Shown: positions 6,185-61,102, counted from the first letter of the stretch. The stretch is DNA of 64,000 bases from an uncultured bacterium (GCA_903831815.1 CAIKZC010000010.1:14914-78913); one strand, 5' to 3'. The notes: a model not told the origin generated them from the sequence alone. Numbers and translations: made by a program.

Positions 6185-6247
6185 ATAATTTAGTATACAG
6201 AAAGGCTCTCGATATTGCTATCGAGAGCCGGGCGGTTGTTATATAAC

Positions 6248-16374: not shown

Positions 16375-17256
16375 ATGAAGATGATTATAGCGGTATTAGT
16401 TGTGATGTTTGTTTGTGCTGGCAACGTAATGGCTGGGGCATGGACCACCATTAACATACCTGGCGGCGGCACAAACTTGTTTGGGGTCAGTGGAAATAAC
16501 ATGGTTGGTAGTTCCTCTCGAGGTGGTTCATTCTACGATGGAACAAGCTGGGCTACCATTAACTATCCTGGGGCATCGAGTGCGGTCCCGTACGCGATCA
16601 GTGGCAACACTATCGTGGGTGAATACCGCGGAGGTACCCACAGTGGTCCTGGTAAGCAGGGCTATGGTTTCATCTATGACGGAACAAATTGGACCACCGT
16701 GGATGCCCCTGGACCAAACTACACAATTTTGTGCGGTATTTCTGGGAACAACATTGTTGGTCAGTACACCGATGCCTCTGACAACAATCACGGTTATTTC
16801 TACAATGGAACAAGTTGGGCGACCCTGGACTATCCTGGGGCAGGCGCAACATACCTACAAGGCATTTCCGGCACAAACATCGTTGGTTGGGAAGAAGGTG
16901 CTCCTGATGGTGACAACGCCTTTCTGTATGATGGAACGACGTGGAAAACTCTTGATATGCCCGGGGTGAATAGCTGGAGCATAGTTCCACGTGGCATTGA
17001 CGGCAGCAACATCGTTGGTTACTACAGCGCTCCAGACGCCACGCATGGTTTTCTCTACGACGGGACGACCTGGACCACACTTGATTACCCTGGGGCATTG
17101 GATACGATGGTGTATGGCATATCCGGTGGCGACATCGTTGGTGAGTATACTGACAACTCGGGGAACTATGGGTTTCTCTATACTGTTCCCGAACCAGCAA
17201 CACTTGGGCTGCTCAGTTTCGGTTTTCTGGCTCTGGTGCGCAGGCGACGGCGCTGA
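16375..17256 (+). CDS. Secreted repeat protein with a C-terminal PEP-CTERM sorting signal
   Basis: Signal peptide; about 7 repeats of a ~30-aa motif (Y/F)DGT(S/T)W(A/T)T(I/L)(D/N)YPGA...GISG.NIVG; C-terminus VPEPATLGLLSFGFLALVRRRRR-stop is a textbook PEP-CTERM (PEP, TM helix, Arg cluster); GC markedly above its surroundings. Confidence 0.7.
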   Translation: MKMIIAVLVVMFVCAGNVMAGAWTTINIPGGGTNLFGVSGNNMVGSSSRGGSFYDGTSWATINYPGASSAVPYAISGNTIVGEYRGGTHSGPGKQGYGFIYDGTNWTTVDAPGPNYTILCGISGNNIVGQYTDASDNNHGYFYNGTSWATLDYPGAGATYLQGISGTNIVGWEEGAPDGDNAFLYDGTTWKTLDMPGVNSWSIVPRGIDGSNIVGYYSAPDATHGFLYDGTTWTTLDYPGALDTMVYGISGGDIVGEYTDNSGNYGFLYTVPEPATLGLLSFGFLALVRRRRR

Positions 17257-31098: not shown

Positions 31099-31214
31099 CA
31101 AAGCACAGAAAAGAGCGACCGAGAGGGGCTCTCGGACGCCGACGGGCGGAGAGTGAGCGCAATTTTCAGCAGAAAATTGACGCGGACCCTCGAGGTGCTT
31201 TTTTCTGTGCTTTG
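31099..31214. repeat. GC-rich structured palindromic repeat, copy a (family of three copies in this window)
   Basis: Perfect 16-18-bp outer stem GCAAAGCACAGAAAAG/CTTTTTTCTGTGCTTTGC enclosing the conserved core GAGGGGCTCTCGGACGCCGACGGGCGGAGAGTGAGCGCAATTTTCAGCAGAAAATTGACGCGGACCCTC. Confidence 0.7.
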
Positions 31215-38485: not shown

Positions 38486-38586
38486 ACTAACCTCCATGTT
38501 TGTTGGAGACACTGAGACCTATTTGTACTGCAACTCTGGCATGAATATACCACAGCTTCTGTAAAAAACAAGTTTAATTTTATAAA

Positions 38587-38696
38587 CAAAAGAAAATAGC
38601 AGTTTTGAGGGACTCACGGAGCGCGACGGCGCGAGTGTGAAGGAAATTTCCAGCAGGAAATTTACCTGTGCCCTCAAAACTGCTATTTTCTTTTGT
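38587..38696. repeat. GC-rich structured palindromic repeat, copy b
   Basis: Perfect 26-bp outer stem ACAAAAGAAAATAGCAGTTTTGAGGG/CCCTCAAAACTGCTATTTTCTTTTGT enclosing core GAGGGACTCACGGAGCGCGACGGCGCGAGTGTGAAGGAAATTTCCAGCAGGAAATTTACC. Confidence 0.7.
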
Positions 38697-38705
38697 TTCT
38701 TATTC

Positions 38706-39866
38706 CTACTTCTTTCCTACAAACGCTAATGCCATTTTTTGATCCTTGGCATCAAATAAAGTTATCTTGAAATCGTAAGTCTTTCCAAGTTCAAGAGCTT
38801 CTCGAAGTTTGTCATCACTTCCAAATTCTGAAACGTGTACTAATCCAGCAATTCCTTCTTCAATCGAAGCCAACGCACCGTGTCGATTGTATTTAATGAT
38901 GACACCTTTGACCAAAGCATCTTTCTTGTATTTCTTTGAAGCTTCAACCCAAGGATTTGGTTTCAAAGCTTTGATTGAAAGAGAAATTTTATTGTCTTTG
39001 ATCTCAATAATTTTCACTTTGACAGTTTCGCCAACTTTGTAGAGAGCGCGAGGATCTTCAACGAGTGACCAATCGAGTTCGGAGATGTGGACAAGTCCTT
39101 CCAAACCTTCCTCGATCTTGACGAAGATTCCAAAATCAACGGTACCGGTGACTTCACCTTTAACTTCATCGCCAACCGTATATTTGCCGATAATTTTCTC
39201 TTTATCTTTTTGGGTTGGGCTCTTTTCTGAGAAAATAAGTTTGCCTTCCTTTGGAGTTGCACCAATAATCGTGACGTGAATTTTTGTATTTACTAATTTT
39301 CGCAATTCCTCAAGAATTTTATCCTTGTCGCCATCAACGATGCGAGGATAATGCTCAGGTTTAAGTTGTGAAGCCGGCAAAAATCCTTGGATGCCTTGCC
39401 ACAATATAATAAGACCACCTTTGTTGGCATCGGTGACCATGACTTCGATCAAAGTTTTATTCTTGATTGCTTCCTCGGCTTCGTTCCAGATAATTGCTTG
39501 CTTTGCTTCCTTGAGAGAAAGCTCGATGTATCCTTCAACGTTGTCGATATCAATAACTTTGGCTGCAACTTTGTCGCCAATGTTTATTTTTCGAACGATA
39601 TCGCGAGCGTTGGTAAATTCGCGACCGTAAATAATACCAGTTCCGTATGGAGCTAGATCTACATATACGGCAGCTTTGTCGATACTGATAACTGGACCTT
39701 CAACCATGTCGCCGACGTTTGGAGTCGCGATTGATTGCTCGATAAATTTAACCATTGGACCAGTAAGAACAGGCACAACAGGGGATTTACCTTTTTTAAC
39801 CTTTGCTAAAATTCCTTCCGCAGGTTTTTTACCTGCAGTTTTTTCGACTGCAACTTCTTTTTTCAT
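38706..39866 (-). CDS. rpsA: 30S ribosomal protein S1 (four S1 domains)
   Basis: Four tandem S1/OB repeats (GDMVEGPVISIDKAAVYVDL..., GDKVAAKVIDIDN..., GDEVKGEVTGTVDFGIFVK..., ALVKGVIIKYNRHGALASI). Confidence 0.75.
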   Translation of the reverse strand: MKKEVAVEKTAGKKPAEGILAKVKKGKSPVVPVLTGPMVKFIEQSIATPNVGDMVEGPVISIDKAAVYVDLAPYGTGIIYGREFTNARDIVRKINIGDKVAAKVIDIDNVEGYIELSLKEAKQAIIWNEAEEAIKNKTLIEVMVTDANKGGLIILWQGIQGFLPASQLKPEHYPRIVDGDKDKILEELRKLVNTKIHVTIIGATPKEGKLIFSEKSPTQKDKEKIIGKYTVGDEVKGEVTGTVDFGIFVKIEEGLEGLVHISELDWSLVEDPRALYKVGETVKVKIIEIKDNKISLSIKALKPNPWVEASKKYKKDALVKGVIIKYNRHGALASIEEGIAGLVHVSEFGSDDKLREALELGKTYDFKITLFDAKDQKMALAFVGKK

Positions 39867-45181: not shown

Positions 45182-45350
45182 TCCTTTGATTACGGTTTCG
45201 TGACTTATAAAAACAACATCTGCATATAGACTGTTCCTTTTAAATATAATGTCAAGTTAATAAATTTTGGAGGAAATACCTACGAAATATGATTTACTTT
45301 GCTCAAGCTATCCACTTCCTACTTTACTCAGTGTGTCATATAATAGAAGC

Positions 45351-45887
45351 ATGTTTGCTAATCCGCAGGAAAATCTTGAAAAGTTCGGACTTTCTCCCGG
45401 AACAATCGTTGCTGATCTTGGCGCCGGAACAGGGCACTATACTTTAGCTGCAGCCAAAATGGTGGAGGGAAAGGATATGAACGGCAAGGTTTACGCTATT
45501 GATGTTCAAAAAGACTTGCTCGACAGGATAAAAACGGAAGCTAATCGCGAACACCTCGCCAATATTGAAATAATTTGGGGTAATGCCGAGAAAATTGGCG
45601 GCACTAAACTGCACGATGGCAGTGTCGATGTCGTTATTGCTTCAAATATCTTTTTTCAAGTCGAGGATCGGGTTTCTTTCGCCAAAGAAATCTCGCGAAT
45701 TCTTAAGTCTAAAGGACGTCTATTGTTTATCGAGTGGAGCGATTCGTTTGGCGGTATCGGACCACACAAAGATGCCGTGGTGACCGAAAATCAAGCCCGA
45801 GATTTTTTTGAAAAGAACGGTTTTGTAATTGAAAAAGGACTAGCGGTCGGTTCGCATCATTATGGGCTTGTAATTAGAAAAAAATAA
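45351..45887 (+). CDS. Class I SAM-dependent methyltransferase
   Basis: GTIVADLGAGTGHYTLAAAKMV motif I, VYAIDVQKDLL post-I; start at internal Met (ORF track start 45267). Confidence 0.65.
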   Translation: MFANPQENLEKFGLSPGTIVADLGAGTGHYTLAAAKMVEGKDMNGKVYAIDVQKDLLDRIKTEANREHLANIEIIWGNAEKIGGTKLHDGSVDVVIASNIFFQVEDRVSFAKEISRILKSKGRLLFIEWSDSFGGIGPHKDAVVTENQARDFFEKNGFVIEKGLAVGSHHYGLVIRKK

Positions 45888-45888
45888 C

Positions 45889-47217
45889 ATGGCTAATTTA
45901 AGTAAATTTCAATTATTTTTTATTGGTGGTCTGATCGTTGCTATTGTGGCGGCGGTCGGAGTTTTTGCTTTAAACAAGTCTGCCGGTGGCGGTTCTACGG
46001 CAACAATAACAATTTGGGGAACTTTACCTGACGCGACTATACAGGAATTTCTTCAAAAAACCGAAATTTCCACATTGCTCGATGCCAAAAAAGTTAATGT
46101 CGTTTATGTCGCAAAACCGGCTGATACTTTTGACCGAAATGTCGTTGAAGCAATCGCGAGCGGAAAGGGTCCTGATGCGGTCATGATCTCTCAGGATGCA
46201 ATCTTGCAATATTTGGACAAGATCGTTCAAATTCCTTTTTCCTCTTTTCCTGAACGCACGTTCAAGGATATGTACATCCAGGAAGCAGAATTGTTCCTGA
46301 CTGATCAAGGTGTCGCCGCAGTGCCATTCACGATTGATCCATTAGTTATGTATTGGAATCGCACATTACTTACAAATGCCGGTATTTCCAATCCACCAAC
46401 GCTTTGGTCTCAGCTTTATGTCCCAGATGGAGTTATTGCTAAAATTAACAAGACTGACGTTAATAATAATATTGTCAAAACCGCTTTGGCTCTTGGAACC
46501 AATAATAATGTTTTTCACTCCAAGGATATTTTGTCTCTACTTATGATGCAGGCCGGAGCGCCGATAGTGGTGAAAAATACCAATGGTAGTTTGCAAAATG
46601 CATTATCAAATTCAAATAGCTCCATAAATCAGAACGGAGCGGAAGCGGCTCTCAGTTTTTACACGCAGTTCGTTGATCCGGTCAAGAGTATTTATTCATG
46701 GAACACTTCTTTGCCACTTTCACGAGATATGTTTACAGCAGGTGACTTGGCCTTATATTTTGGATATGCCAGCGAACTCGGCAATCTAAATGCTCGTAAT
46801 CCAAATCTCAATTTTGATGTTGCTCTTATGCCACAAAGTCAGTCAAGCTCGGTCAAAATGACATATGGCAAGGTTTATGGTTTGGCAATTTTAAAAAGTT
46901 CTCCGAATGTTGTGGCGGCCACCAATGCTTTTTATGCTTTAACTTCGTCAGCGGCACAAACGGTATGGAGTAACGAAAGCGGATATCCACCGGTGGTCCG
47001 AAGTTTATTGACACAAAAAACCAGCAGTCCTTTTATGTCGGTTTTCAACACCGCGGCTCTTCAAAGTCAGGGATGGCTCGATCCAAATCGCTCCGCTACG
47101 AACGAAATATTTAATGATATGATTGGGTCAGTGATCTCGGGCGACAAACAGCCTTCAGGAGCTGTGCAAGATGCGGGGAACAGTTTAGATCAATTGCTAA
47201 AAGGATTTTCCAATTAA
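45889..47217 (+). CDS. Extracellular solute-binding-protein-like secreted protein
   Basis: N-terminal signal anchor; ~440 aa with type 1/2 periplasmic binding protein-like composition; weak similarity only. Confidence 0.4.
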   Translation: MANLSKFQLFFIGGLIVAIVAAVGVFALNKSAGGGSTATITIWGTLPDATIQEFLQKTEISTLLDAKKVNVVYVAKPADTFDRNVVEAIASGKGPDAVMISQDAILQYLDKIVQIPFSSFPERTFKDMYIQEAELFLTDQGVAAVPFTIDPLVMYWNRTLLTNAGISNPPTLWSQLYVPDGVIAKINKTDVNNNIVKTALALGTNNNVFHSKDILSLLMMQAGAPIVVKNTNGSLQNALSNSNSSINQNGAEAALSFYTQFVDPVKSIYSWNTSLPLSRDMFTAGDLALYFGYASELGNLNARNPNLNFDVALMPQSQSSSVKMTYGKVYGLAILKSSPNVVAATNAFYALTSSAAQTVWSNESGYPPVVRSLLTQKTSSPFMSVFNTAALQSQGWLDPNRSATNEIFNDMIGSVISGDKQPSGAVQDAGNSLDQLLKGFSN

Positions 47218-47222
47218 TATAT

Positions 47223-47660
47223 ATGCTTAAAAATTTAGCGAAAAAAATATCAATAACCCTTCTAATTTCATTTTGCTTGTGGGGAACTTTCAGTTCAACT
47301 ATTTTGGCGGCTGATTCTGCGCTTGTTCAGTGCGGAAGAGAAGGTAGTCCCGGTGTGAATGCTACGAGCGGAACACCTCTTGCATTGGGATGCGGATTTG
47401 CCGATTTTATTAAACTCATAAATACGATCATAAATTACTTGATTATCATTTCGATGCCGCTTGCCGCCGTGGCCTTTGCTTGGGCCGGTTGGTTATATCT
47501 ATCGGCGGGCGAAGATACGGGTAAAGTAAAAACTGCTCGTGCGATATTTACTGATGTGGGCATTGGTTTGATTATTCTTTTGTCCGGATGGTTGGTGTTT
47601 AAATTAATCGCCGACAACTTTTTAAACACGTTTTATGCCGGCAGCACGTTTTTAAATTAA
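47223..47660 (+). CDS. TrbC/VirB2-like small membrane (pilin-like) protein, paralogue 1 of 5
   Basis: Signal/TM at N-terminus, then two closely spaced C-terminal TM helices separated by a short charged loop (AGWLYLSAGEDTGKVKTARAIF). Confidence 0.5.
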   Translation: MLKNLAKKISITLLISFCLWGTFSSTILAADSALVQCGREGSPGVNATSGTPLALGCGFADFIKLINTIINYLIIISMPLAAVAFAWAGWLYLSAGEDTGKVKTARAIFTDVGIGLIILLSGWLVFKLIADNFLNTFYAGSTFLN

Positions 47661-47666
47661 ATTATT

Positions 47667-48194
47667 ATGAAAAAAACATTTTTGATCATAGGGATAATTT
47701 CGGTGATGGTGTCGTCGTTTTATTTTATGTCAGATCGTTTAGTTTTTGCTGATAATTTGGCTGTGAACCTTCCTTCTCAGAACACTTCTGCAAGTGATAA
47801 TACTTTAATCCCTTCGCAGAACACTTCTGCTGGTGACAATGTGTCCGTTAACCCTTCTTCAATTTCAGATCACTCGGGAGAAAATAATTCAATTGGAATA
47901 CAAAATCCCTTAAAAAACATCAATTCGATCCCACAACTCATAGGAGCGGTGTTAAAATTCGTAGTTAATTTACTTTCCATAGCCGGTGCGCTTTATATCA
48001 TTTGGTCTGGATTTATGTTCGTCAAAGCTCAAGGTAATGAGAAAGAATTGGAAGCGGCGAAAAAATCTTTCGTAAATGCTATCATAGGGATGGCTATAAT
48101 CTTGGGAGCATGGGGACTCGCACAAGTTATTGCCAAAACGATCGATAGTGTGACGGGTGTTCAATCGGGTTTCGGAACGGTTTTAGGTGGTTAA
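47667..48194 (+). CDS. TrbC/VirB2-like small membrane protein, paralogue 2 of 5
   Basis: Same architecture: N-terminal TM, C-terminal TM-loop-TM (IIWSGFMFVKAQGNEKELEAAKKSFVNAIIGMAIILGAWGL). Confidence 0.5.
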   Translation: MKKTFLIIGIISVMVSSFYFMSDRLVFADNLAVNLPSQNTSASDNTLIPSQNTSAGDNVSVNPSSISDHSGENNSIGIQNPLKNINSIPQLIGAVLKFVVNLLSIAGALYIIWSGFMFVKAQGNEKELEAAKKSFVNAIIGMAIILGAWGLAQVIAKTIDSVTGVQSGFGTVLGG

Positions 48195-48218
48195 AATAAT
48201 TAGTAATTAATATTTAAT

Positions 48219-48626
48219 ATGAAAAAATGTCTTAAGTTGGTGGCGCTTGGTTCAATGTTTTTTGCCGCCCAGAATGTTTTTGCGGCGGCTCTTATTCCTC
48301 CGGGTACGGATCTTACCGGATTGATCGGAAATGTTAAAACCATTTTGAGTAGTTTGGTTGGTTTGCTGGTTGTCGCCGCTCTCGTTGTATTCCTATATGG
48401 AACTTTCATTTTTATCGCTAAAGCAAGTCAGGGTGACGCCGAAGGTCGAACAGAAGGAAGAAAGTTCATGATCTATGGGGTCATCGGTCTCGCTGTCATG
48501 ATTTCTGTTTGGGGACTTGTTGAATTCGTGACAAATGCATTAGGTGTAGGTCATACGCTCATTCAATTTAATAGTAACGCAGGCCCAGTCGATAACAGTA
48601 CTCAAAACGGTCCGGAACGAATATAA
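48219..48626 (+). CDS. TrbC/VirB2-like small membrane protein, paralogue 3 of 5
   Basis: Signal peptide + FLYGTFIFIAKASQGDAEGRTEGRKFMIYGVIGLAVMISVWGL. Confidence 0.5.
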   Translation: MKKCLKLVALGSMFFAAQNVFAAALIPPGTDLTGLIGNVKTILSSLVGLLVVAALVVFLYGTFIFIAKASQGDAEGRTEGRKFMIYGVIGLAVMISVWGLVEFVTNALGVGHTLIQFNSNAGPVDNSTQNGPERI

Positions 48627-48731
48627 CTATGGACTTCCGGCACATTAGATATCCACAGTTTGAATTGTAGGGCCTGGAATAAAGGGGTATAATATATATT
48701 GTGATTATTTATTAGCAGTTTTATTAATATT

Positions 48732-49103
48732 ATGAATAAAATAAAAGTTATCGTAAGCGCATTGTTGGGTTCTTTGGGTCTTTTGCCGGCATTGGCTTTT
48801 GCTCAAAGCAACTTTAATTTGTCTTCGGGTGGAATTAGTGGCATCCTCGTTCAAATTCAGGATATTTTGGGTATGGTGGTTCCTTTGCTTATTGGCCTTG
48901 CCGTCATCGTTTTCCTATGGGGCGTTTTGAAGTTCCTCATGAATGCTAATGATCCTGATAAACGAGGTGAAGGCAGAATGTTTATGATCTGGGGTATTGT
49001 CGGAATCGTCATAATGGTATCTGTCTGGGGCCTTGTAGGGTTCGTTCAGCGAGCAACAGGTGTTCGTGGCGGTGCTGCTCCACAAGCTCCTGCAATTCCT
49101 TAG
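48732..49103 (+). CDS. TrbC/VirB2-like small membrane protein, paralogue 4 of 5
   Basis: Signal peptide + FLWGVLKFLMNANDPDKRGEGRMFMIWGIVGIVIMVSVWGL. Confidence 0.55.
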   Translation: MNKIKVIVSALLGSLGLLPALAFAQSNFNLSSGGISGILVQIQDILGMVVPLLIGLAVIVFLWGVLKFLMNANDPDKRGEGRMFMIWGIVGIVIMVSVWGLVGFVQRATGVRGGAAPQAPAIP

Positions 49104-49119
49104 AACTCTCTAATTTCAA

Positions 49120-49383
49120 ATGGATATTGTCGACAAAATAATTACTGTTATAGTAAATCCTCTTCTAACCCTTCTTTTCAGTTTGGCCGGTCTTTATTTT
49201 CTGTATGGAGTGTTTAAATTTATCCAAAATGCGGAAAATTCGGAAAAGAGGCTAGAGGGTGCGAGACATATGCTGTGGGGAATCATAGGTATTGCGATAA
49301 TGTTTTCGGTATTTGCTTTCATTCATGTGATCCGTCAAACTGTCGGTCCAAGTCCGTATAATGAGACGCCGAGTTTGAAATAG
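49120..49383 (+). CDS. TrbC/VirB2-like small membrane protein, paralogue 5 of 5 (shortest)
   Basis: LYGVFKFIQNAENSEKRLEGARHMLWGIIGIAIMFSVFAF. Confidence 0.45.
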   Translation: MDIVDKIITVIVNPLLTLLFSLAGLYFLYGVFKFIQNAENSEKRLEGARHMLWGIIGIAIMFSVFAFIHVIRQTVGPSPYNETPSLK

Positions 49384-49421
49384 GGGAGAAAGAAAAAGTA
49401 AAAAAAGAAATAAAAAAAGAT

Positions 49422-49449
49422 GGCGCGGGACTCAGCTGAGTCCCGCGCC
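49422..49449. terminator. Perfect 28-bp palindrome GGCGCGGGACTCAG/CTGAGTCCCGCGCC (bidirectional terminator)
   Basis: Flanked by A-run upstream and TTTTG downstream, between the plus-strand TrbC array and the minus-strand GC island. Confidence 0.65.
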
Positions 49450-49467
49450 ATTTTGCTTCGCATGTAG

Positions 49468-50076
49468 CTACTGGTTTCCGACCAGTATCTGCATCGGACG
49501 GTCATCTCCTTCCGGCCGAATCGGTTCCACGTACATAGTCGTGAATGCTTTCGGCTTTATCGGAACCTTTCTGGAGTCGGAGTATTTGATCGGTTCCGGA
49601 TCGACCAAGTGTTCCTTCCCTTGGGGATCGGTGATCATTCGGTAGATGAGAAAATCATCATCTTTCAGTGCCGGTCTTGCACAAAGTCCGGCGTACTTCT
49701 TGATGGTCACTTTAACTCGCTGGTGAGGATAAGCCCAGATCTCATCCATCTGGCCGGCGGGTGCAGGGGATTCCGCTATTGGCGCCGACTTCGCGGCATC
49801 CGTTGCTCGAGGTGTAGACGAGGGGATCCCGCTGTAACTCTCGCAGATTCGTACCGTGACGATGACCACAATCGTCATTGCAACTATGATCGAGGTCGCT
49901 GCGATCTTGTCGATACGACGAGCTCGCCACAGCTTCCACATGAGACCTGTGACAATTGTCACAAACATCAAGATCCAGAAAGAAGTGGGGTGCAGCAAAT
50001 AGTACAAAATATCTAACGCTGCAACGATAGCGGCTATTATTGCCACCCACTTCGTAAATGTCCGTAAACTTGGCAT
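49468..50076 (-). CDS. Hypothetical membrane protein (GC-rich island)
   Basis: Three N-terminal TM helices then a soluble domain; GC clearly above genome average. Confidence 0.4.
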   Translation of the reverse strand: MPSLRTFTKWVAIIAAIVAALDILYYLLHPTSFWILMFVTIVTGLMWKLWRARRIDKIAATSIIVAMTIVVIVTVRICESYSGIPSSTPRATDAAKSAPIAESPAPAGQMDEIWAYPHQRVKVTIKKYAGLCARPALKDDDFLIYRMITDPQGKEHLVDPEPIKYSDSRKVPIKPKAFTTMYVEPIRPEGDDRPMQILVGNQ

Positions 50077-50202
50077 TGCTACCTCTCTTTCTTTTCCGTG
50101 TTTTTTGTTGTCAAAGGTAGCAACGCGCTACCAAACTAGGCACAGAGTATTGTATCATAATACAACGATAAAGTCAAGAATCGTGAAAATATATAAAAAA
50201 AT

Positions 50203-50240
50203 AACCGCGGACACCAGTTTTTAAACTGGCGCCGCGGTTT
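50203..50240 (-). terminator. Intrinsic terminator hairpin (AACCGCGG...CCGCGGTT with inner palindrome CCAGTTTTTAAACTGG)
   Basis: Downstream of the stop of 50273..51085 on the minus strand, followed by a T-run on that strand. Confidence 0.5.
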
Positions 50241-50272
50241 GTTGACCTTCTTCGTCGTAGTGGTCAAGAGTG

Positions 50273-51085
50273 CTACGGTGACATTGGGACTCCGGAAGCG
50301 GAGTTAGCCCCAGCCACAGACCTCGAAGCGGAAATAGATTCGGAAGCAGCAGACTGAGTCTGCTGTTGTCCCTGAACCTGAAATGCGTTACCGCCTCTTC
50401 CACCGGCACCGCCCAAACCGATGCCACCACCACCGCCGGCTCCGCCCGCGCCGCCGTTAGCTTTGACCACAGTGGAACTGCGTGCTGGCCGAATTAATGC
50501 TCCGGCTACAGCAACACCTGTGCCTTGAGCAATACCTTGCCCAAGACCGTCCATTATGCGTGTGTTTTTGCCAGACGCACTTCCGCTGGCGGAATTCACC
50601 AGGTAAGAATTTCCTGGTTGATTTTCAACCGGCGGATTGGGAACAGCAGTCATTTGCTGTGGCTGCGGAGTGCCGTAGTTTGGAACGGCAGTCGGCGTTT
50701 GCATAATCGGCTGCCGAGCATCGTAGGTGACCTGAGCTGCACCGAATGGTTGCTGCGTCGGCGCCCACGGTTTCGGCGATGTAAATCCGGTTGTCGGAAT
50801 GTTGGCCGGCGGCAGCTGCGGCGGTTGCTGCGCACTTATGTCAGTCGTCTGCTGTGGTGGCGCCACGGGCTCGATCTCAGTAGCGTAGGTGTCGACTTTC
50901 GTCACCACTACGCCACTGTCGTCTTTGTAAGAGACGACGCGATCACGAAGCTTCATGTTGCCGTTTTGGTACGGCTCGCCGATCCAGTGAGAGGTCTCGT
51001 ACTTGTTTGCGCAGCCAACGAGGCCACACAAGATTGTCGCCATAATAGCGACGATGAACAGTTTCATTTTCATGGTTTCTCCCAA
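50273..51085 (-). CDS. Pro/Gln-rich lipoprotein with Gly-rich C-terminus (GC-rich island)
   Basis: Signal peptide + lipobox LVGC; long P/Q-rich low-complexity region; GGAGGAGGGGGIGLGGAGGRGG tract. Confidence 0.5.
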   Translation of the reverse strand: MGETMKMKLFIVAIMATILCGLVGCANKYETSHWIGEPYQNGNMKLRDRVVSYKDDSGVVVTKVDTYATEIEPVAPPQQTTDISAQQPPQLPPANIPTTGFTSPKPWAPTQQPFGAAQVTYDARQPIMQTPTAVPNYGTPQPQQMTAVPNPPVENQPGNSYLVNSASGSASGKNTRIMDGLGQGIAQGTGVAVAGALIRPARSSTVVKANGGAGGAGGGGGIGLGGAGGRGGNAFQVQGQQQTQSAASESISASRSVAGANSASGVPMSP

Positions 51086-51130
51086 AAAAGAACGAAAAAC
51101 AAAACGAAGGATCGAACTTCCTTGCTCAGC

Positions 51131-52204
51131 TTATGGCTGAGAGGGCAAGGAGAGTGGAATCGTTAACAACCCCGATCCTGCTGGCGCATACGGAAAGTTT
51201 CCCGGACTCGCCATGTAGCGTGTAAAACCTCCACCTTGGTAAAATCGCGAGGGACTGACGTTTGTCACCGGGGTTACCAGTTTGGCAACTTCAGGTGAGT
51301 AAACGATCTGGCCGGTCGCGTTGTCTACCGTAAAAGGAAGGCTATACATGACAACATACGGCCAATCGTTTGGCACGCCGTTCACCCAAAAGCGGGTGTG
51401 TTTGCTGCCATCGGGTTGGCTAAAGTCGTTCATGTAGACACCGTCAACAGCCTTGACCAAAGCTCCATCATCCAGACACAAAAGGATATTCACCTTCCAT
51501 ATCGGAGGAGCATTGCCAGAAAGTATGGCGCCGCGATCCTTTTGGGGGATTTGCGCCAACACTTTCTGAAAATCTTGACTCAGTCCATCGAGCTTGCTTC
51601 CCAGCTTGTCTCCAAGCTCTTTCATGTCGGCCTTGGTAGCCAATGGACTTGTCGTCGGATCGAAGATCTGGCGACGCTGTTCGTCGAACTGCGCCTGAGT
51701 TTTCTTGACGACACGTTCGGCCACATCGTCGGCATATTTCGTCCAGTTATCGGCGGTGACGAGCTTCTCCTTATCTTTGAGAATCTCGTTCCGCAATTCG
51801 CTGATGATCTTGCCGCTTGAGTCGCTTGCGCCAGACTTCATGCTATCGGACTTCAAGAGCCAGATACCGAATCCGACAACAACGATCAGGGCGATGATAG
51901 CCAGGATAAACCAAGCAATCTCCGACCACTTGGCAATCCTCGACGCGACCTGACTCGGTGCGGGTGCCGGTTGCCCAGGCGGATTGGGATCCGTGTTCCT
52001 GGTTGCGACACCAGGGACCAAACCGAACTGTTCCATGGATATTCTTCTCAGATAACCTGCGCGCTCCATCTCCTCGACTACAGGATCGCGAATTTCTTCG
52101 CGTCCTCGTGCGGGCGCAGGTGCGGGTGCCGGTGGAACTGTACTCGACGCAGGTGCAGGGCCCGGATTAGGGGGACTTGCAGGGTTATTCGGAACTTGTG
52201 ACAT
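51131..52204 (-). CDS. Hypothetical surface protein: Pro-rich N-terminus, one TM, extracellular domain (GC-rich island)
   Basis: PAPAPAPA-type N-terminus, TM WFILAIIALIVVVGFGIWLL, ~230-aa C-terminal domain. Confidence 0.45.
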   Translation of the reverse strand: MSQVPNNPASPPNPGPAPASSTVPPAPAPAPARGREEIRDPVVEEMERAGYLRRISMEQFGLVPGVATRNTDPNPPGQPAPAPSQVASRIAKWSEIAWFILAIIALIVVVGFGIWLLKSDSMKSGASDSSGKIISELRNEILKDKEKLVTADNWTKYADDVAERVVKKTQAQFDEQRRQIFDPTTSPLATKADMKELGDKLGSKLDGLSQDFQKVLAQIPQKDRGAILSGNAPPIWKVNILLCLDDGALVKAVDGVYMNDFSQPDGSKHTRFWVNGVPNDWPYVVMYSLPFTVDNATGQIVYSPEVAKLVTPVTNVSPSRFYQGGGFTRYMASPGNFPYAPAGSGLLTIPLSLPSQP

Positions 52205-52343
52205 GTGTCACCTCCTAATTGCGTTCTACTATTGCAGAAAAAGACGCGAAATCGCGCCGATTTCTTGTTCGTTTCAACGAACAGGACCTATGTTTGTACT
52301 ACCATATCTAAAGAGATTTGTAAAGGGGTATTCTCTTTGTGGG

Positions 52344-52370
52344 CGAGGAGGGACTTGGTCACGCATAAAT
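52344..52370. repeat. Direct repeat 1 (CGAGGAGGGACTTGGTCACGCATAAAT; 26/27 identical to 52748..52774)
   Basis: Read directly; the pair brackets a 65-aa ORF and lies between the GC island and tRNA-Leu. Confidence 0.55.
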
Positions 52371-52465
52371 TCCCATGAAAAATACTCGGTAAATTATAAA
52401 AGAGATAAAAGATAACCCACGATTGAGTTCGTGGGTTTAAGAGGAGCTGACTGTGTGGTCGAATT

Positions 52466-52663
52466 TTATCGAGAACCAAGGATGCGGCGCCTTCGAAGTT
52501 CAAAGACAAGTTCTTGGGCTCTCAATCGCTTCATATCCGCTTTAACCGCGATCTCGGTTGCTTTTTCGCGTATCCATGCAGACAGAGTTGCTGCTTCTCG
52601 CAGGGGAAGTGACAGTTTCAACACAATCACTTTCTCGGTTTTTTTACCGTTTACTACTCGCAT
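52466..52663 (-). CDS. Hypothetical small basic protein (65 aa)
   Basis: MRVVNGKKTEKVIVLKLSLPLREAA...; bracketed by the 27-bp direct repeats. Confidence 0.25.
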   Translation of the reverse strand: MRVVNGKKTEKVIVLKLSLPLREAATLSAWIREKATEIAVKADMKRLRAQELVFELRRRRILGSR

Positions 52664-52747
52664 TGGCCACTCAACCTTTCTTTGGGGTTAAAATCTAATT
52701 TAATTTTACATAAAGTAGTTACTTTTGCAATGTAAATATTATATTTA

Positions 52748-52774
52748 CGAGGGGGGACTTGGTCACGCATAAAT
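52748..52774. repeat. Direct repeat 2 (CGAGGGGGGACTTGGTCACGCATAAAT)
   Basis: ~43 nt from the 3' end of tRNA-Leu(TAG). Confidence 0.55.
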
Positions 52775-52816
52775 CGTTTAAAACAAAACCGCCAAAATAG
52801 CGGTATGTTTTGTCTG

Positions 52817-52897
52817 TGGGCGAGGGGGGACTTGAACCCCCACGCCTTGCGGCACTAGCTCCTAAGGCTAGCGTGTATGCCATTTCACCACTCGCCC
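52817..52897 (-). tRNA. tRNA-Leu (anticodon TAG), long variable arm, no encoded CCA
   Basis: Reverse complement: GGGCGAG acceptor, anticodon stem CTAGC/GCTAG with loop CTTAGGA, long variable arm, T-arm GGGGG-TTCAAGT-CCCCC. Confidence 0.75.
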
Positions 52898-52924
52898 ATG
52901 AATGATCTTTCTTCGCATACCTTG

Positions 52925-52997
52925 TGCACCCAGTTGGATTCGAACCAACGACCGTCTCCTTAAGAGGGAGTCGCTCTACCAACTGAGCTATGGGTGC
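52925..52997 (-). tRNA. tRNA-Lys (anticodon CTT), no encoded CCA
   Basis: Reverse complement: GCACCCA acceptor, D-arm AGCTCAGTTGGTAGAGC, anticodon loop CTCTTAA, T-loop TTCGAAT. Confidence 0.7.
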
Positions 52998-53062
52998 ATT
53001 TCTTTTAATACTCGAAAAATTTAACAGATTTTTCGACTTTCGGCAAATTTTCTTTTTACCGG

Positions 53063-53144
53063 TGCCCAGGGCGGGAATCGAACCCACATCCCTTGCGAGA
53101 CAACATTTTAAGTGTTGCGTGTATACCAGTTCCACCACCTGGGC
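53063..53144 (-). tRNA. tRNA-Leu (anticodon TAA), long variable arm
   Basis: Reverse complement: GCCCAGG acceptor, anticodon stem CAACA/TGTTG with loop CTTAAAA, long variable arm, T-loop TTCGATT. Confidence 0.75.
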
Positions 53145-53200
53145 ATTTTTAATTTATTAAAAAACAGAAATGTTTTTTGCTAATAGATACACTATTAGTG

Positions 53201-53274
53201 AGGCGTAGATCAGGTTCGAACTGATGCATAGCAGTTTTGCAGACTGCCGCGTTAACCAACTTCGCCACTACGCC
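53201..53274 (-). tRNA. tRNA-Cys (anticodon GCA), no encoded CCA
   Basis: Reverse complement: GGCGTAG acceptor, anticodon stem GCAGT/ACTGC with loop CTGCAAA, T-loop TTCGAAC, discriminator U. Confidence 0.75.
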
Positions 53275-55316: not shown

Positions 55317-55859
55317 TTATGCATCTCGTGTTTCTTGCGCTTTTTTCACCGCCATTTTTTCTTCTTCGGAAAGTCCGTGCTCAGAATTATGATCTTTTAA
55401 TGGTTTCGAAAAAACACTAGTTCGCTCTCGGCCATACAGACTTGAAAAAACAACGCCATCGCCATGCTGATTCATAATCGCAGTTGCGAAACTTTGATTG
55501 GCACCGACACCTTCAAAAGCATTAAAACGAACGGTCTCAACAGCTTGCACGCTTTTCTGTAAACGTTTCTCGACGTCGGTCAAATACTTTTCCATTTCAC
55601 TCATAAACTTCTCGGCTTCTTTTTGATTATTTTTGAGATGAGTGATGGATTCCTCAAGATTACCAGACGCACCGGCTGTCAATTTACGAAACTTCATTTC
55701 CAAACGAATTATCCAAATGACCAATAAAATTACAATCAAACTTGCCAATATCGCCATTCTAAGCGGATCTTGAAGATAATTAGCAATTGAATTGATGAAT
55801 GAGTACATATGGATATTTAAGCCAAGAAATATCCTGTGATTATACATATAAAACGACAT
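55317..55859 (-). CDS. Hypothetical membrane protein with coiled-coil region
   Basis: TM MAILASLIVILLVIWIIRL, then helical charged segment. Confidence 0.35.
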   Translation of the reverse strand: MSFYMYNHRIFLGLNIHMYSFINSIANYLQDPLRMAILASLIVILLVIWIIRLEMKFRKLTAGASGNLEESITHLKNNQKEAEKFMSEMEKYLTDVEKRLQKSVQAVETVRFNAFEGVGANQSFATAIMNQHGDGVVFSSLYGRERTSVFSKPLKDHNSEHGLSEEEKMAVKKAQETRDA

Positions 55860-57206: not shown

Positions 57207-57308
57207 TTTTATTTTTTTGACTTTTTCTATAAACATGGTATCTTTTTGGTTAGAAATGAACAACGTGTTCTAGTGTCTGCTTTGATCTTTGGCAAGAGGA
57301 GAATTATC

Positions 57309-58040
57309 ATGGCTACAACAGCCATTCTAGAGCGTCGAGGGATTTCAGTTGTTTCGGTTGATTCGGAAGACAGTATTCTGGTTGAAGCTCGGAAAGAGCT
57401 TTTCCAAGAGGCTGAACGGGTGCTCGGCTATAGGCCGCAATCTGGTATTCAGGCCGCAGAAATCGGTTGGCGAACGACCAACACGGTGGCGGTGGCTTTT
57501 GGGGATGACATCAAACCCTTTACCACCAAATCGGTGGATACCTACAAACGCCGGATTACGAAATGGAATTGGTTGGCTCACACAATCAGTGGCCTGCCAG
57601 ACGATGATGGTAACCGCTTGATGAAATTGCTTGTGATGTTGGGGTCATTATCCTTTATCGTCTCCCTTTTCGGTTTTGTGATGATCTGGTCAGGTGATGC
57701 CAGCAGAATTTCCAGGGGTTGGAGAGTCGCAGGAATCTCTGGTCTGTCCATGTCCGCCTGTATTGTACTTTTGTTTGGTATGTTAGTGCTGGCTGACAAG
57801 GTAAAAGTTCTTTCGTGGCACCTTGTCGACCTTAATGGATTTCAGGACGAAGTTCCGGACTTTGTCCTGCAAACGGCGATAACCATTAAGAAGCGACTGC
57901 CGGAAGCTACGTTTTTCGTGGATGTATGCCAGAAGGAGAAGCTCAACGTTGATCCCTTCTTGGTTATGCAGTTTCGTGGTGAGAGCTACTACCTCGAGGT
58001 TTGGAACGAGCCGAAATTCGAAAAGGGCTCCTCGACTTAA
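57309..58040 (+). CDS. Hypothetical membrane protein (two TM helices), GC-rich
   Basis: AGAGGAG SD then ATG (MATTAILERRG); TM helices LMKLLVMLGSLSFIVSLFGFVMIW and ISGLSMSACIVLLFGMLVLA. Confidence 0.4.
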   Translation: MATTAILERRGISVVSVDSEDSILVEARKELFQEAERVLGYRPQSGIQAAEIGWRTTNTVAVAFGDDIKPFTTKSVDTYKRRITKWNWLAHTISGLPDDDGNRLMKLLVMLGSLSFIVSLFGFVMIWSGDASRISRGWRVAGISGLSMSACIVLLFGMLVLADKVKVLSWHLVDLNGFQDEVPDFVLQTAITIKKRLPEATFFVDVCQKEKLNVDPFLVMQFRGESYYLEVWNEPKFEKGSST

Positions 58041-58159
58041 CCTCGCGACATCGAATCAGTTTTCGCAGAACATCAGCCGCCACAATCCTGTGGCGGCTTT
58101 TCATTTTTTTTGAATTGTCATTTTAGAATTCTGAAAACGGCATTTATAGTGCAACCTTA

Positions 58160-58269
58160 AGCTTCCGGGAGTGCTATCTGAGGGGACTCTCGGACGCCGA
58201 CGGGCGGAGAGTGAACGAAATTTCCAGCAGGAAATTTACGCGGGCCCCGAAGATAGCACTCGCGGAAGC
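58160..58269. repeat. GC-rich structured palindromic repeat, copy c
   Basis: 19-bp outer stem GCTTCCGGGAGTGCTATCT/AGATAGCACTCGCGGAAGC (1 mismatch) enclosing core GAGGGGACTCTCGGACGCCGACGGGCGGAGAGTGAACGAAATTTCCAGCAGGAAATTTACGCGGGCCCC. Confidence 0.7.
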
Positions 58270-58369
58270 GTAAATTTGACTCCCACTTTTTAATTTTGCA
58301 TAATTGGGGTATCCGAACGACTTATTTCTGAATTCCTCTATTAACGCCTTAATTTAAGCCATTTTAACT

Positions 58370-61102
58370 ATGTTACCATTCAATCATTTCACAACTAAAG
58401 CCAAAGAAGCTATTCGCCGAGCGCACGAACTCGCCATTGAACGTGGCCAAAATCACGTCAATCCGATGCACTTGCTGGCCGCTCTCATTTTGCAGGAGGA
58501 AAGCATGGTCACTTCCATTTTGGAAAAATTGGAAATCGACACCATGTTGTTGACCGATTCGATTCTAGAAACTATTGAAGGAGCCGAAGGTGGTTCATCA
58601 ACTTTGTCGCCTTCATATCAAATTTATTTGACTCCGGAATTGAGTCAGGCAATTGAGTCGTCGGCCAAAATTGCCGAATCACTCAAAGATGAATTTGTTT
58701 CGACTGAACACTTGTTTATTTCCGTACTAGAAGTGCCGGGTGCTGCGCGAGAAATGCTGACAAAATTTAAGATTGATAAAAATGCGGTGCTCAAAGTGTT
58801 GGAAGAAATTCGAACGACCAAAACGGCCGATGTTAAAGAGTCTAAGAAATTTAAATCGCTTTTGAAATACACTCGAAACCTGACGACGCTTGCTCGCGAA
58901 AATAAACTTGATCCTGTCATCGGCCGTGACGCGGAAATTTCGCGCATCATTCAAATTCTTTCTCGTCGCACCAAAAATAATCCGATTTTGATTGGTGAAG
59001 CCGGGGTTGGTAAGACGGCAATCGTTGAAGGTCTGGCAATTCGTATGTCGGTTGGCGATATTCCTGAATCTCTCAAAGACAAGGAACTTGTTTCTCTTGA
59101 TCTTGGTTTGCTTATTGCTGGCACAAAATATCGTGGCGAGTTTGAAGAGCGTTTGAAGAATATTATGAAAGAGATCGAGCGTGCTGACGGCAAGATCGTT
59201 CTCTTTATTGATGAGATCCACACGATTGTCGGAGCTGGCGCAGCCGAAGGTGCGATGGATGCTTCCAACATGTTGAAACCTGCTCTGGCTCGCGGAGAAC
59301 TTCGAGCGATTGGTGCGACGACGACCAAGGAATATCAAAAACATATTGAAAAAGATCCAGCGTTGACTCGTCGTTTCCAGCCGGTCTATGTCAACGAGCC
59401 TAGTATTGACGATGCGATCGCAATCATGCGCGGACTCAAAGAAAAATATGAGTTGTATCACGGCGTGCACATTACTGATGATGCAATTGTCGCTGCGGTA
59501 AATCTTTCTAGTCGATATATTTCTGATCGATTTTTGCCTGACAAAGCAGTGGACTTGGTTGATGAAGCTGCTTCAGCTCTCCGTATTTCGTTGGAAAACA
59601 AACCACCGATTCTTGAGGAAACAGATCGAAAAATTGTGCGTTTGGAAATCGAGCGTGAAGCTCTAAAAAAAGATGCCGTTCATTCAAAAGTAGCTAAGGC
59701 TCGCACCAAAGTTATCGAAGCTGAAATTGCTAACTTACGAGAGAAAACCAGCGAGCTTGAACTTAAATGGAAAAATGAAAAAGATACTTTGACTGGCATC
59801 AAATCGATTAAAAAAGAATTAGAACAGTTGCGAAATGAAGCGGAAGGTGCAGAAGCTCGCGCCGACCTTTCTCGCGCAGCTGAAATTCGTTACGGAAAAA
59901 TTCCTGAACTTCAAAAAGATTTGGAAACCAAGACCAAACGTCTGAAACGTTTGCAAAGTACTCGCCGGATTCTCAAGGAAGAGGTGACTGAAAATGATAT
60001 TGCGCAGGTCGTGGCAAAGTGGACCAGTATTCCGGTCACTCGCATGCTTGAAGAGGAAGCTCAAAAACTGACTCGCATGGAAGACGACCTCAAAAAGAAA
60101 ATTGTCGGCCAAGACGAAGCTGTTAAAAAGATTTCCGACACCATCAAACGTTCTCGTGCCGGTATTGCCGATCCAAATCGTCCAATTGGTTCGTTTATTT
60201 TCCTTGGACCTACAGGAGTTGGTAAAACGGAACTGACCAAAAAACTAGCCGAGTTCATGTTCGACGACGAGAAAGCTTTGATCCGCGTTGATATGTCCGA
60301 ATTCATGGAACGACATTCAGTTTCAAAATTGATTGGTGCGCCTCCAGGCTATGTCGGATATGAAGAAGGCGGTAACTTGACCGAAATGGTGCGTCATCGA
60401 CCGTATGCCGTGATTCTTTTCGACGAGATCGAAAAAGCCCACCCGGAAGTTTTCAACGTGCTTCTACAGGTGCTTGATAACGGACGATTGACGGATGCTA
60501 AGGGGCGATTGGTGAACTTCAAAAACACTATCATTATAATGACATCAAACGTTGGTGCTCAGCATATTCAGAAAATGGAAAAAATTGGTTTCGGCGGTGT
60601 TGAGACCGACATCCAGAAATATCAAAGTGTTAAAGAAAAACTTAGTTCATCGCTCAAAGATTATTTCCGTCCGGAATTCTTGAACCGTATTGATGACATT
60701 ATTATCTTTGATATCTTGAACGAGAAAGCTATTGAAGAAATTGTGAAAATTCAAGTTGATATTGTTAAGGAGCGATTGTCGGTCAAAGATATCAAACTCG
60801 ATATTACTCCCGATGTTTACAAATATCTGGCCAAGGAAGGTTACAATCCGGAATACGGTGCACGACCTTTGAAACGTTTGATTCAGACCAAGATTCTAAA
60901 TCCTGTCGCTAACCTCATTATCTCACAAGGTGTAATGAAGGGCGGAGAGATTATGGTGGGAATTAAATCAGTTGATGCAAAATCGACAGAAGTGCAGAGT
61001 GTGCAAACGGGTGTACAACCAGTCGAATTTACTTTTGAGGTCAAGAAAGGGAAAAGGGGATCGATTGTCACATCGGCGATTGAGCAAGCGATGAGTAAGT
61101 AA
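58370..61102 (+). CDS. clpB: ATP-dependent chaperone ClpB (AAA+ disaggregase)
   Basis: Clp N-domain, two AAA+ modules ([13 protein letters not shown]; [15 protein letters not shown]), long middle coiled-coil domain between them. Confidence 0.85.

Follow-up and report, generated by a model that had tools for sequence, protein, structure and literature searches.

The GC-rich block of three minus-strand genes that lies beside a cluster of four tRNA genes in a 64,000-nucleotide stretch of DNA from an uncultured bacterium (GCA_903831815.1, CAIKZC010000010.1:14914-78913; the whole stretch is called the window, and coordinates given without a contig name refer to it) is, on the reading that we favour and to which we give an even chance, a resident, fast-diverging slot for envelope genes next to a polymorphic tRNA insertion hotspot. 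Counted from the tRNA side, the block consists of a gene for a proline-rich membrane protein (gene A), a lipoprotein gene and a gene for a 202-aa protein (Table 1). An initial annotation had taken the composition of the block, its position next to the tRNA genes and a pair of 27-bp direct repeats to suggest a horizontally acquired island with scars resembling attachment (att) sites. Our reading rests on anatomy, homology, synteny, strain polymorphism and composition as shown below, and it separates what had been joined: the repeats delimit a small insertion of their own and not the GC-rich block. Judging from the placement of its IF-2 sequence, the host is a member of the Patescibacteria (candidate phyla radiation, CPR), Paceibacteria group; among the matches listed, IF-2 was at most 55% identical to that of species-representative genomes.

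The closest relative found, on contig L109, encodes IF-2 and RbfA proteins 80.3% and 84.5% identical to those of the window and carries the same four tRNA genes, followed 224 nt later by homologues of gene A (27.8% identity) and of the lipoprotein gene (30.2%). Since a homologous cassette occupies the same slot in L109, it was already present in the common ancestor and was not freshly integrated. The spacer before gene A is alignable and colinear between the two, and the 3' end of the L109 tRNA-Leu(tag) is identical over 22 nt to one of the two repeats of the window (copy A). The loci differ in the segment between the tRNA gene and copy A (52358-52815), and the segment that the repeats bracket is absent from L109.

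The position itself is conserved more widely. In Paceibacteria the gene order is gyrA, methyltransferase, solute-binding protein, an array of type IV secretion system (T4SS) pilins, the slot, tRNA-Leu/Lys/Leu/Cys, rbfA and infB, and the tRNA-Cys/Leu(taa)/Lys/Leu(tag) cluster follows the genes for IF-2 and RbfA in most of 28 related loci; this arrangement downstream of IF-2 and RbfA is ancestral synteny, widespread in Paceibacteria. (RbfA, IF-2 and a cysteine desulfurase (aminotransferase) were named from precomputed Pfam matches.) The slot, defined as the interval from tRNA-Leu(tag) to the pilin gene, measures 1.3-4.2 kb in 16 related loci, where it is occupied mostly by transmembrane (TM) proteins encoded in the same orientation. 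When the block proteins of the window were compared by sequence with these slot proteins, no similarity was found, and most of the occupants of the 16 relatives are unlike each other too. SPFH/Band 7 (PF01145) was matched by three of ten slot proteins scanned from the relatives, two of them above the cutoff, and the GC content of the slot exceeds that of its locus in 10 of the 16. The slot is thus a variable region that holds different membrane- or surface-protein genes in different lineages. The initial annotation had held that the presence of the same block in syntenic position in all relatives would count against an island; this applies in part, in that a homologous cassette lies in the slot of L109, while the three-gene block is absent from the slot in the 16 more distant relatives, which have other genes there.

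Gene A and the lipoprotein gene belong together. The 357-aa product of gene A has a single TM segment and contains 10.6% Pro, as expected from its description as a Pro-rich, single-TM surface protein, and 46 nt separate its gene from the lipoprotein gene downstream. When 1.84 billion representatives were searched exhaustively with HMMER, 11 remote homologues of the C-terminal domain of this protein were found, which share its layout of a signal or TM segment, a coiled coil and a beta-rich domain, and the C-terminal consensus of the family (VNILL..G....W...V.SY....G.I.Y....V.N....Y....G..RY.....AP.G) is present in the window copy. Structure prediction for this domain, of good confidence, gave ten strands (predicted local distance difference test (pLDDT) 78.5, predicted template modelling score (pTM) 0.70), and no analogue was found in the PDB. 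In seven other loci (L088, L089, L092, L094, L109, L110 and L111) a lipoprotein homologue stands directly after the gene A homologue; as the two genes are adjacent wherever DNA was available, they form a conserved two-gene cassette. The lipoprotein agrees with the initial annotation in having a lipobox, a Pro/Gln-rich region and a Gly-rich tail. It is built of a signal peptide with LVGC at residues 18-21 after a hydrophobic segment, which fits the bacterial lipobox pattern [LVI][ASTVI][GAS]C, followed by a small N-terminal domain, a Pro/Gln linker (21% Pro and 14% Gln over residues 61-160), a conserved GALIRP motif, which in the homologues appears as GA.QG..G....ALIRPS, and a Gly/Ser-rich tail with 25% Gly. 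LVGC is kept in six of seven aligned homologues (LGGC in L088), and the protein matched that of L092 by BLASTP with E=4e-05.

The cassette occurs in several settings: beside the series sortase, CAP, FtsQ, FemAB (L092, L111), with a P-type ATPase and a lytic transglycosylase (L110), after ValRS, PrsW and Hsp20 (L093), and beside tRNA-Leu(tag) (the window, L094, L109). Pfam, PHROGs and NCBIfam held no family for any of the three block proteins, word-index protein searches with all three returned self-matches only, and a scan of IMG/VR for the gene A family found no relative; the cassette is a rare, uncharacterised and unnamed family. The idea that gene A is a degenerate SPFH protein was rejected, as PF01145 was not matched, with no Pfam signal, and the order of domains differs. 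From its predicted topology, gene A would encode a membrane protein of type II, with a Pro-rich head in the cytoplasm, a coiled-coil stalk outside the cell and the beta-rich domain at its C-terminus; the two genes are probably co-transcribed, and their products may form a complex at the surface. The flagged block would be of an ordinary kind, an envelope-gene slot of variable content next to a tRNA insertion hotspot. What it does define is a rare surface cassette of two genes in CPR bacteria, organisms in which the cell surface mediates an episymbiotic life and has hardly been characterised at all.

The second component of our reading is the hotspot. In the sister strain represented by contig L101, which is 99.3% identical to the window over 5.9 kb, the two sequences diverge exactly at the last base of tRNA-Leu(tag) (52816). 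Contig L102 (99.0% identical) carries a different tRNA-Leu allele, followed by a 157-nt filling, a distal copy matching its own allele, and then unrelated DNA. Contigs L107 and L108, with flanks 100% identical, diverge at the end of tRNA-Cys. The 3' end of tRNA-Leu(tag) is a genuine insertion point at which strains differ.

Several further features were seen at these tRNA ends. In L101, AT-rich foreign DNA (5889-6246) abuts tRNA-Leu(tag) and includes an open reading frame (ORF) that converges on the tRNA gene and overlaps it; the C-terminal 125 aa of this ORF matched no recombinase family, and an exact-pattern scan for the insert was negative. The ORF region is possibly the end of a larger integrated element. 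Directly after tRNA-Cys, L107 (1882-2057) and L108 have an HNH homing-endonuclease gene (phrog_10822, E=1.3e-5), where the window has a 55-nt spacer only, just beyond 53200. Inserts of 0.9-1.9 kb lie within the tRNA cluster in L010, L056, L066 and L078. In L094, where a cassette member likewise adjoins tRNA-Leu(tag), there is a 46-nt repeat made of the tRNA end and flanking sequence. Between tRNA-Leu(tag) and this repeat (1115-1265) lies an inverted tRNA-like 3' half comprising a T arm and a long variable-arm hairpin, which ARAGORN does not call.

The direct repeats described in the initial annotation, at 52344-52370 and 52748-52774, are real (26 of 27 positions identical, with none expected in 100 shuffles), as are the 65-aa basic ORF between them (17 Lys and Arg residues) and the four tRNA genes, confirmed as Leu-tag, Lys-ctt, Leu-taa and Cys-gca. 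A repeat finder placed a third, weaker member inside tRNA-Leu(tag), whose end reads ...GGGGGTTCAAGTCCCCCCTCGCCCAC in the tRNA sense. Both repeats, termed copies A and B, consist of the tRNA 3' end from the T loop onwards joined to a common 13-nt sequence. Copy A reaches as far as 52337 and agrees with the final 20 nt of tRNA-Leu(tag) at 18-19 positions; it has the CCCTCC allele of the L109 tRNA, and its TTATGCGTGAC junction recurs in L102, L073 and L069. Copy B carries the allele of the tRNA-Leu(tag) now present in the window. The repeats are therefore att-like, being copies of the tRNA-Leu(tag) 3' end. A search of the 64-kb window for further tRNA-end copies with at least 14 of 20 matches found none besides an unrelated tRNA, and an exact-pattern scan for the repeat junction was negative.

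The segment between the repeats is absent from L109, L101 and L102, and probably represents a small inserted element, whole or in remnant form. A promoter-like site (52766..52738) overlaps copy B, and a terminator-like hairpin lies at 52437..52414. The 65-aa ORF matched no Pfam, PHROGs or NCBIfam family and had no homologue, no tblastn match in phage records and no PDB match by sequence. The interval 52344-52774 has the properties of an att-flanked remnant, namely repeats derived from an attachment site, no recombinase inside and variability among strains. Independent assemblies from other samples reproduce the arrangement of the window in overlapping contigs, and it is therefore not an assembly artefact; short contigs tend to break between the repeats, and no single short contig spans both.

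Turning to the origin of the repeats, copies A and B proved to be the last 27-34 nt of a larger structured unit, which we call the Y-unit. In 12 of 44 related loci with tRNA-Leu(tag), the 3' end of the genome's own tRNA recurs 51-269 nt downstream in direct or inverted orientation (17-20 of 20 positions), as it also does in the sister-strain contig L102. The DNA between the tRNA and this distal copy folds into a conserved three-way junction, for which RNAalifold, applied to five sequences, gave 25 pairs, 15 of them with compensatory changes. A covariance model built on these sequences found 60 matches at E<=1 in 1.24 Mb, 47 of them at E<0.01. In the resulting alignment 94% of cells pair (63.5% when shuffled), double changes occur at all 25 pairs, and the covariation score is 0.625, against 0.16 for shuffled alignments and 0.04-0.10 with the pairing slid; because the alignment was fitted to the model, these pairing and covariation figures are somewhat inflated. 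One conserved G-U pair marks the tRNA-sense strand. The unit is about 90-150 nt long, has conserved GACG and AGCA loops, and lies 35-70 nt downstream of at least seven kinds of tRNA gene (Leu(tag), Leu(taa), Leu(caa), Tyr, Trp, Cys and Lys); its 3' tail repeats the final 16-20 nt, from the T loop onwards, of the tRNA just upstream. Among the 40 best model matches, 38 lie at most 260 nt downstream of a tRNA gene on the same strand, and in 18 of those the tail agrees with the 3' end of that tRNA at 15 or more of 16 positions, a level reached by none of 146 non-cognate tRNAs of these loci (maximum 13 of 16). L102 has an intact unit and L109 the 5' part only, and a GAAAAGG variant was seen in L023, L034 and L046.

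We tentatively suggest, with somewhat less than even confidence, that the 27-nt repeats are pieces of a structured element belonging to a class not yet described. It could be an RNA that mimics tRNA ends and is, for example, processed, CCA-tagged or guide-like, or else a mobile element of miniature size, homing to the T loops of tRNA genes and restoring the gene in doing so. Rfam returned tRNA matches only, with none at the unit in L073, in L023 or at 38540-38760 of the window. Hammerhead, twister and hepatitis delta virus-like ribozymes, transfer-messenger RNA (tmRNA) and group I and II introns were considered and set aside, having no support from Rfam or ARAGORN and a misfit of size or core motifs. 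So was the idea that the outer helix always mimics the acceptor/T minihelix, which in an ungapped test holds in about one third of tRNA-linked copies. If real, the Y-unit would be a structured element of wide occurrence, with a copy of the 3' end of the particular tRNA that precedes it, and would have consequences for how tRNAs are processed, for mobility that is guided by RNA or directed at tRNAs, and for the evolution of tRNA clusters in reduced genomes.

The compositional part of the initial annotation was borne out when it was quantified by sliding-window GC, by GC at third codon positions (GC3) and by tetranucleotide analysis. The interval 49468-52204 has a GC content of 0.530, where the window as a whole has 0.421; among all 2.7-kb intervals (mean 0.420, standard deviation 0.031) it ranks first in GC, and it also has the greatest tetranucleotide distance from the average (z=4.1), so that the composition is not uniform. 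The GC3 values of the three block genes (0.58, 0.56 and 0.57) are the three highest of 56 ORFs; for the 53 others GC3 is 0.40 +/- 0.06, with a maximum of 0.54. Given the codon usage of the window, however, the amino acids alone predict GC contents of 0.46, 0.53 and 0.49 for these genes (window mean 0.42), so that, although the anomaly is genuine, proteins rich in Pro, Gly, Ala and Gln account for roughly half of it. Synonymous choice adds 0.045-0.052 in the block genes (z about 2), and 0.050 in the gene for RbfA also. Furthermore, the cassette family is richer in GC than its flanks in every genome examined, with a GC3 of 0.45-0.65 against 0.16-0.38 for neighbouring genes in L092, L093, L110 and L111. 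High GC is thus partly protein composition and partly a synonymous-site bias common to the cassette family in every genome. The only other gene of the window above 0.51 GC (16375-17256, plus strand; 0.52 at all three codon positions) encodes an exported product that carries a PEP-CTERM sorting motif at its C-terminus (PF07589, E=2.4e-6), an unusual find in a CPR genome; high GC therefore tracks low-complexity exported proteins.

These data bear on three other explanations. That the entire three-gene block is an island integrated at tRNA-Leu(tag), with the 27-nt repeats as its att scars, now appears very improbable. Both repeats lie on the same side of the block, between it and the tRNA gene, and enclose 377 bp with the 65-aa ORF only; there is no second boundary repeat, and no tRNA-derived sequence was found at the far edge or elsewhere in the 64 kb. 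No integrase was found near the block: Pfam gave no recombinase match for the ORFs of 45267-49383, 55317-55859 and 57246-61102 or for the 65-aa ORF, and none of the three block proteins showed a recombinase domain in Pfam, PHROGs or NCBIfam. Moreover, the nearest relative has a homologous cassette at this position and lacks the repeat-bracketed segment. What speaks for integration is that insertion has been demonstrated at the tRNA gene on whose 3' side the block lies, that the repeats derive from the 3' end of that tRNA, that the composition is atypical, and that the family member of L094 also sits beside tRNA-Leu(tag) with its 46-nt repeat. From the island with att-like scars proposed in the initial annotation we therefore retain the tRNA-derived repeats, the odd composition and the tRNA adjacency, in that 611 nt separate the start of the block from the 3' end of tRNA-Leu(tag), where strains are polymorphic; the repeats as island borders have to be given up. 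A purely compositional explanation, by which the DNA is vertically inherited, its GC content follows fully from low-complexity coding for Pro, Gly, Ala and Gln, and the repeats are unrelated local duplications, is also improbable. It would accommodate the GC of 0.46-0.53 predicted from amino acids alone, the PEP-CTERM surface protein as the other GC-rich gene and the similar synonymous excess of the RbfA gene, but not the fact that all three block genes, including that for the 202-aa protein, which is not of low complexity, top the GC3 of the window, nor that strains differ exactly at the tRNA end and that the repeat unit recurs after many tRNAs in many genomes.

A more serious competitor, which we consider possible though doubtful, is a cassette swap: the slot would be ancestral, and the lineage of the window would have acquired laterally a distant, GC-richer allele of the cassette in place of its resident one, together with the 202-aa gene, through recombination in the conserved flanks (the tRNA trailer and the pilin side) and not through the direct repeats. 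The points in its favour also weigh against our own reading. The cassette proteins of the window and L109 are 28-30% identical against 80-85% for the flanking proteins, a gap that is hard to explain by vertical divergence alone, and the cassette may therefore have been replaced laterally within the slot. The window's gene A is the most divergent member of its family (mean identity 35%), and that of L109 groups with copies from other contexts, being nearer to these (56% identity to protein P0003) than to the window's, which favours replacement by a foreign allele. The cassette family is found in at least four unrelated contexts, GC3 is 0.56-0.58 in the window block against 0.46-0.51 in the L109 cassette, the block is a tetranucleotide outlier, its synonymous GC sits at the top of the window's range, and the 202-aa gene, an orphan, could be a recent arrival. 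To this must be added that one close relative was found, on a contig that ends within the lipoprotein gene. Against a swap, no donor-like sequence was found, the only match above 40% identity being the protein itself, and surface proteins can diverge this fast vertically. Since GC3 is high in the cassette family of all hosts, it does not point to a recent donor, and since the spacer upstream of gene A is alignable with that of L109, that junction is old. On the reading of a resident slot beside a hotspot, the cassette would already have been in the slot of the common ancestor with L109, and would then have diverged very fast or been exchanged for a distant allele; a piece of about 0.4 kb with the 65-aa ORF would have inserted at the end of a Y-unit, most likely by recombination across the 27-nt core, which by this proposed mechanism would have duplicated the core.

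Table 1. Positions of the features discussed; unless a contig is named, coordinates are those of the 64,000-nucleotide window.
Feature	Position	Strand	Remarks
T4SS-pilin gene	49120-49383	+	last gene before the slot, convergent with the 202-aa gene
Perfect-stem hairpin	49417..49454	.	between the convergent pilin gene and the 202-aa gene
202-aa gene	49468..50076	-	three hydrophobic (TM-like) segments; C-terminal soluble part of ~120 aa
Lipoprotein gene	50273..51085	-	266 aa from the ATG at 51073; second gene of the cassette
Gene A	51131..52204	-	357 aa; Pro-rich N-terminus, one TM segment (99-117), long helices, beta-rich C-terminal domain (~230-357)
Copy A	52337..52370	-	ATTTATGCGTGAC + CAAGTCCCTCCTCGCCCACA in the tRNA sense; full copy of the tRNA-Leu(tag) 3' end
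Segment between the repeats	52371..52747	-	377 bp; 65-aa basic ORF at 52466-52663
Copy B	52748..52774	-	ATTTATGCGTGAC + CAAGTCCCCCCTCG; stops after 14 nt of tRNA-derived sequence
Terminator-like hairpin	52788..52804	-	directly after tRNA-Leu(tag); homologous hairpin in L102
tRNA cluster	52816..53274	-	Leu(tag) 52816-52897, Lys(ctt) 52924-52997, Leu(taa) 53061-53144, Cys(gca) 53200-53274
Y-units	L069 14088-14179, L073 12365-12456, L059 8060-8151, L038 12427-12518, L102 3597-3714	.	plus about 40 more

At its low-coordinate edge the block is bounded by the hairpin at 49417..49454, an inverted repeat of 19 nt (95% complementary) with a terminator-like site on the minus strand (49451..49420), which from its sequence looks like a bidirectional terminator; no tRNA-derived repeat was found at this edge. 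The 202-aa protein beyond it has the three hydrophobic segments of the 3-TM protein in the initial annotation, and its gene appears to have a promoter-like site of its own (50177..50149). In a word-index protein search it matched itself only, and no counterpart follows the lipoprotein gene in the loci that reach past it (L092, L110 and L111). As judged from these comparisons, the 202-aa gene seems to be lineage-specific and to lie outside the conserved cassette. Another GC-rich orphan of the membrane, a 201-aa TM protein, is encoded near the cassette of L092 (4470-5075, minus strand), with a GC3 of 0.55 in a genome where GC3 is about 0.3; it has no similarity to the 202-aa protein and was rejected as its counterpart.

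Islands and prophages at tRNA 3' ends typically arise by crossover in the T loop and are flanked by att repeats made of the tRNA 3' end. The window resembles such tRNA-integrated islands in its direct copies of the tRNA 3' end starting from the T loop, in the tandem order of tRNA, copy B and copy A, in a sister-strain insertion point exactly at the tRNA end and in the atypical DNA beside the tRNA. It differs from them in that no integrase was found, the repeat-bracketed piece is 377 bp only, and the GC-rich genes are not enclosed by the repeats and show synteny with the nearest relative. Sublocation classes of tRNA-gene integration have reportedly been described by Williams (Nucleic Acids Res 2002).

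Two other kinds of system offer partial parallels. Cis-mobilizable elements (CIMEs) are what remains of integrative elements that have kept their flanking att sites but no recombination genes; they accrete in tandem at att sites, in tRNA genes or elsewhere, as in the relatives of Streptococcus ICESt1/3. The small att-flanked segment of the window, with no recombinase, tandem accretion and presence or absence among strains, is like these, but no parent integrative element was identified for it, and its att-like core belongs to a conserved structured unit that follows many tRNAs. Hypervariable slots for cell-surface genes, or ‘flexible genomic islets’ between conserved genes, are familiar from the population genomics of free-living bacteria. 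The slot shares with them conserved flanks, non-homologous or extremely divergent envelope proteins at one position across relatives, deviating composition and tRNA adjacency; unlike them, it is found in a reduced CPR host, and what it holds in the window is one particular cassette of two genes, rare but found in other contexts too.

In the case of the Y-unit, the nearest likeness is to the omega RNA, or right-end element RNA (reRNA), of TnpB, in which a structured scaffold is followed by a guide of about 16-20 nt taken from the flanking DNA, and to repetitive extragenic palindromic (REP) elements and miniature inverted-repeat transposable elements (MITEs), which are structured intergenic repeats. 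Like the former, the Y-unit has a conserved scaffold followed by about 19-20 nt identical to a neighbouring target, here the tRNA 3' end; like the latter, it is intergenic and present in many copies per genome. Unlike an omega RNA or reRNA, it has no TnpB, IscB or transposase gene beside any copy examined, its ‘guide’ duplicates the upstream sequence and not the downstream flank, and it has no Rfam match.

Two side observations concern the surroundings. Upstream of the slot, the window has an array of five small T4SS-pilin (PF18895) paralogues (47223-49383, plus strand), downstream of the solute-binding protein gene, and both the array and its place beside the variable slot are kept across Paceibacteria. 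In addition, three related Y-shaped intergenic copies that are independent of tRNA genes occur in the window at 31128-31198, 38603-38689 and 58180-58259, with fold z-scores of -3.4, -9.6 and -7.8. Their common core is GAGGGACTC-TCGGA-[CGCC GACG GGCG]-GAGAGTGA-[AAATTTCC AGCA GGAAATTT]-...CCCTC, each has a long, copy-specific closing stem, and T runs follow two of them; these dispersed copies might be elaborated terminators or a MITE-like repeat.

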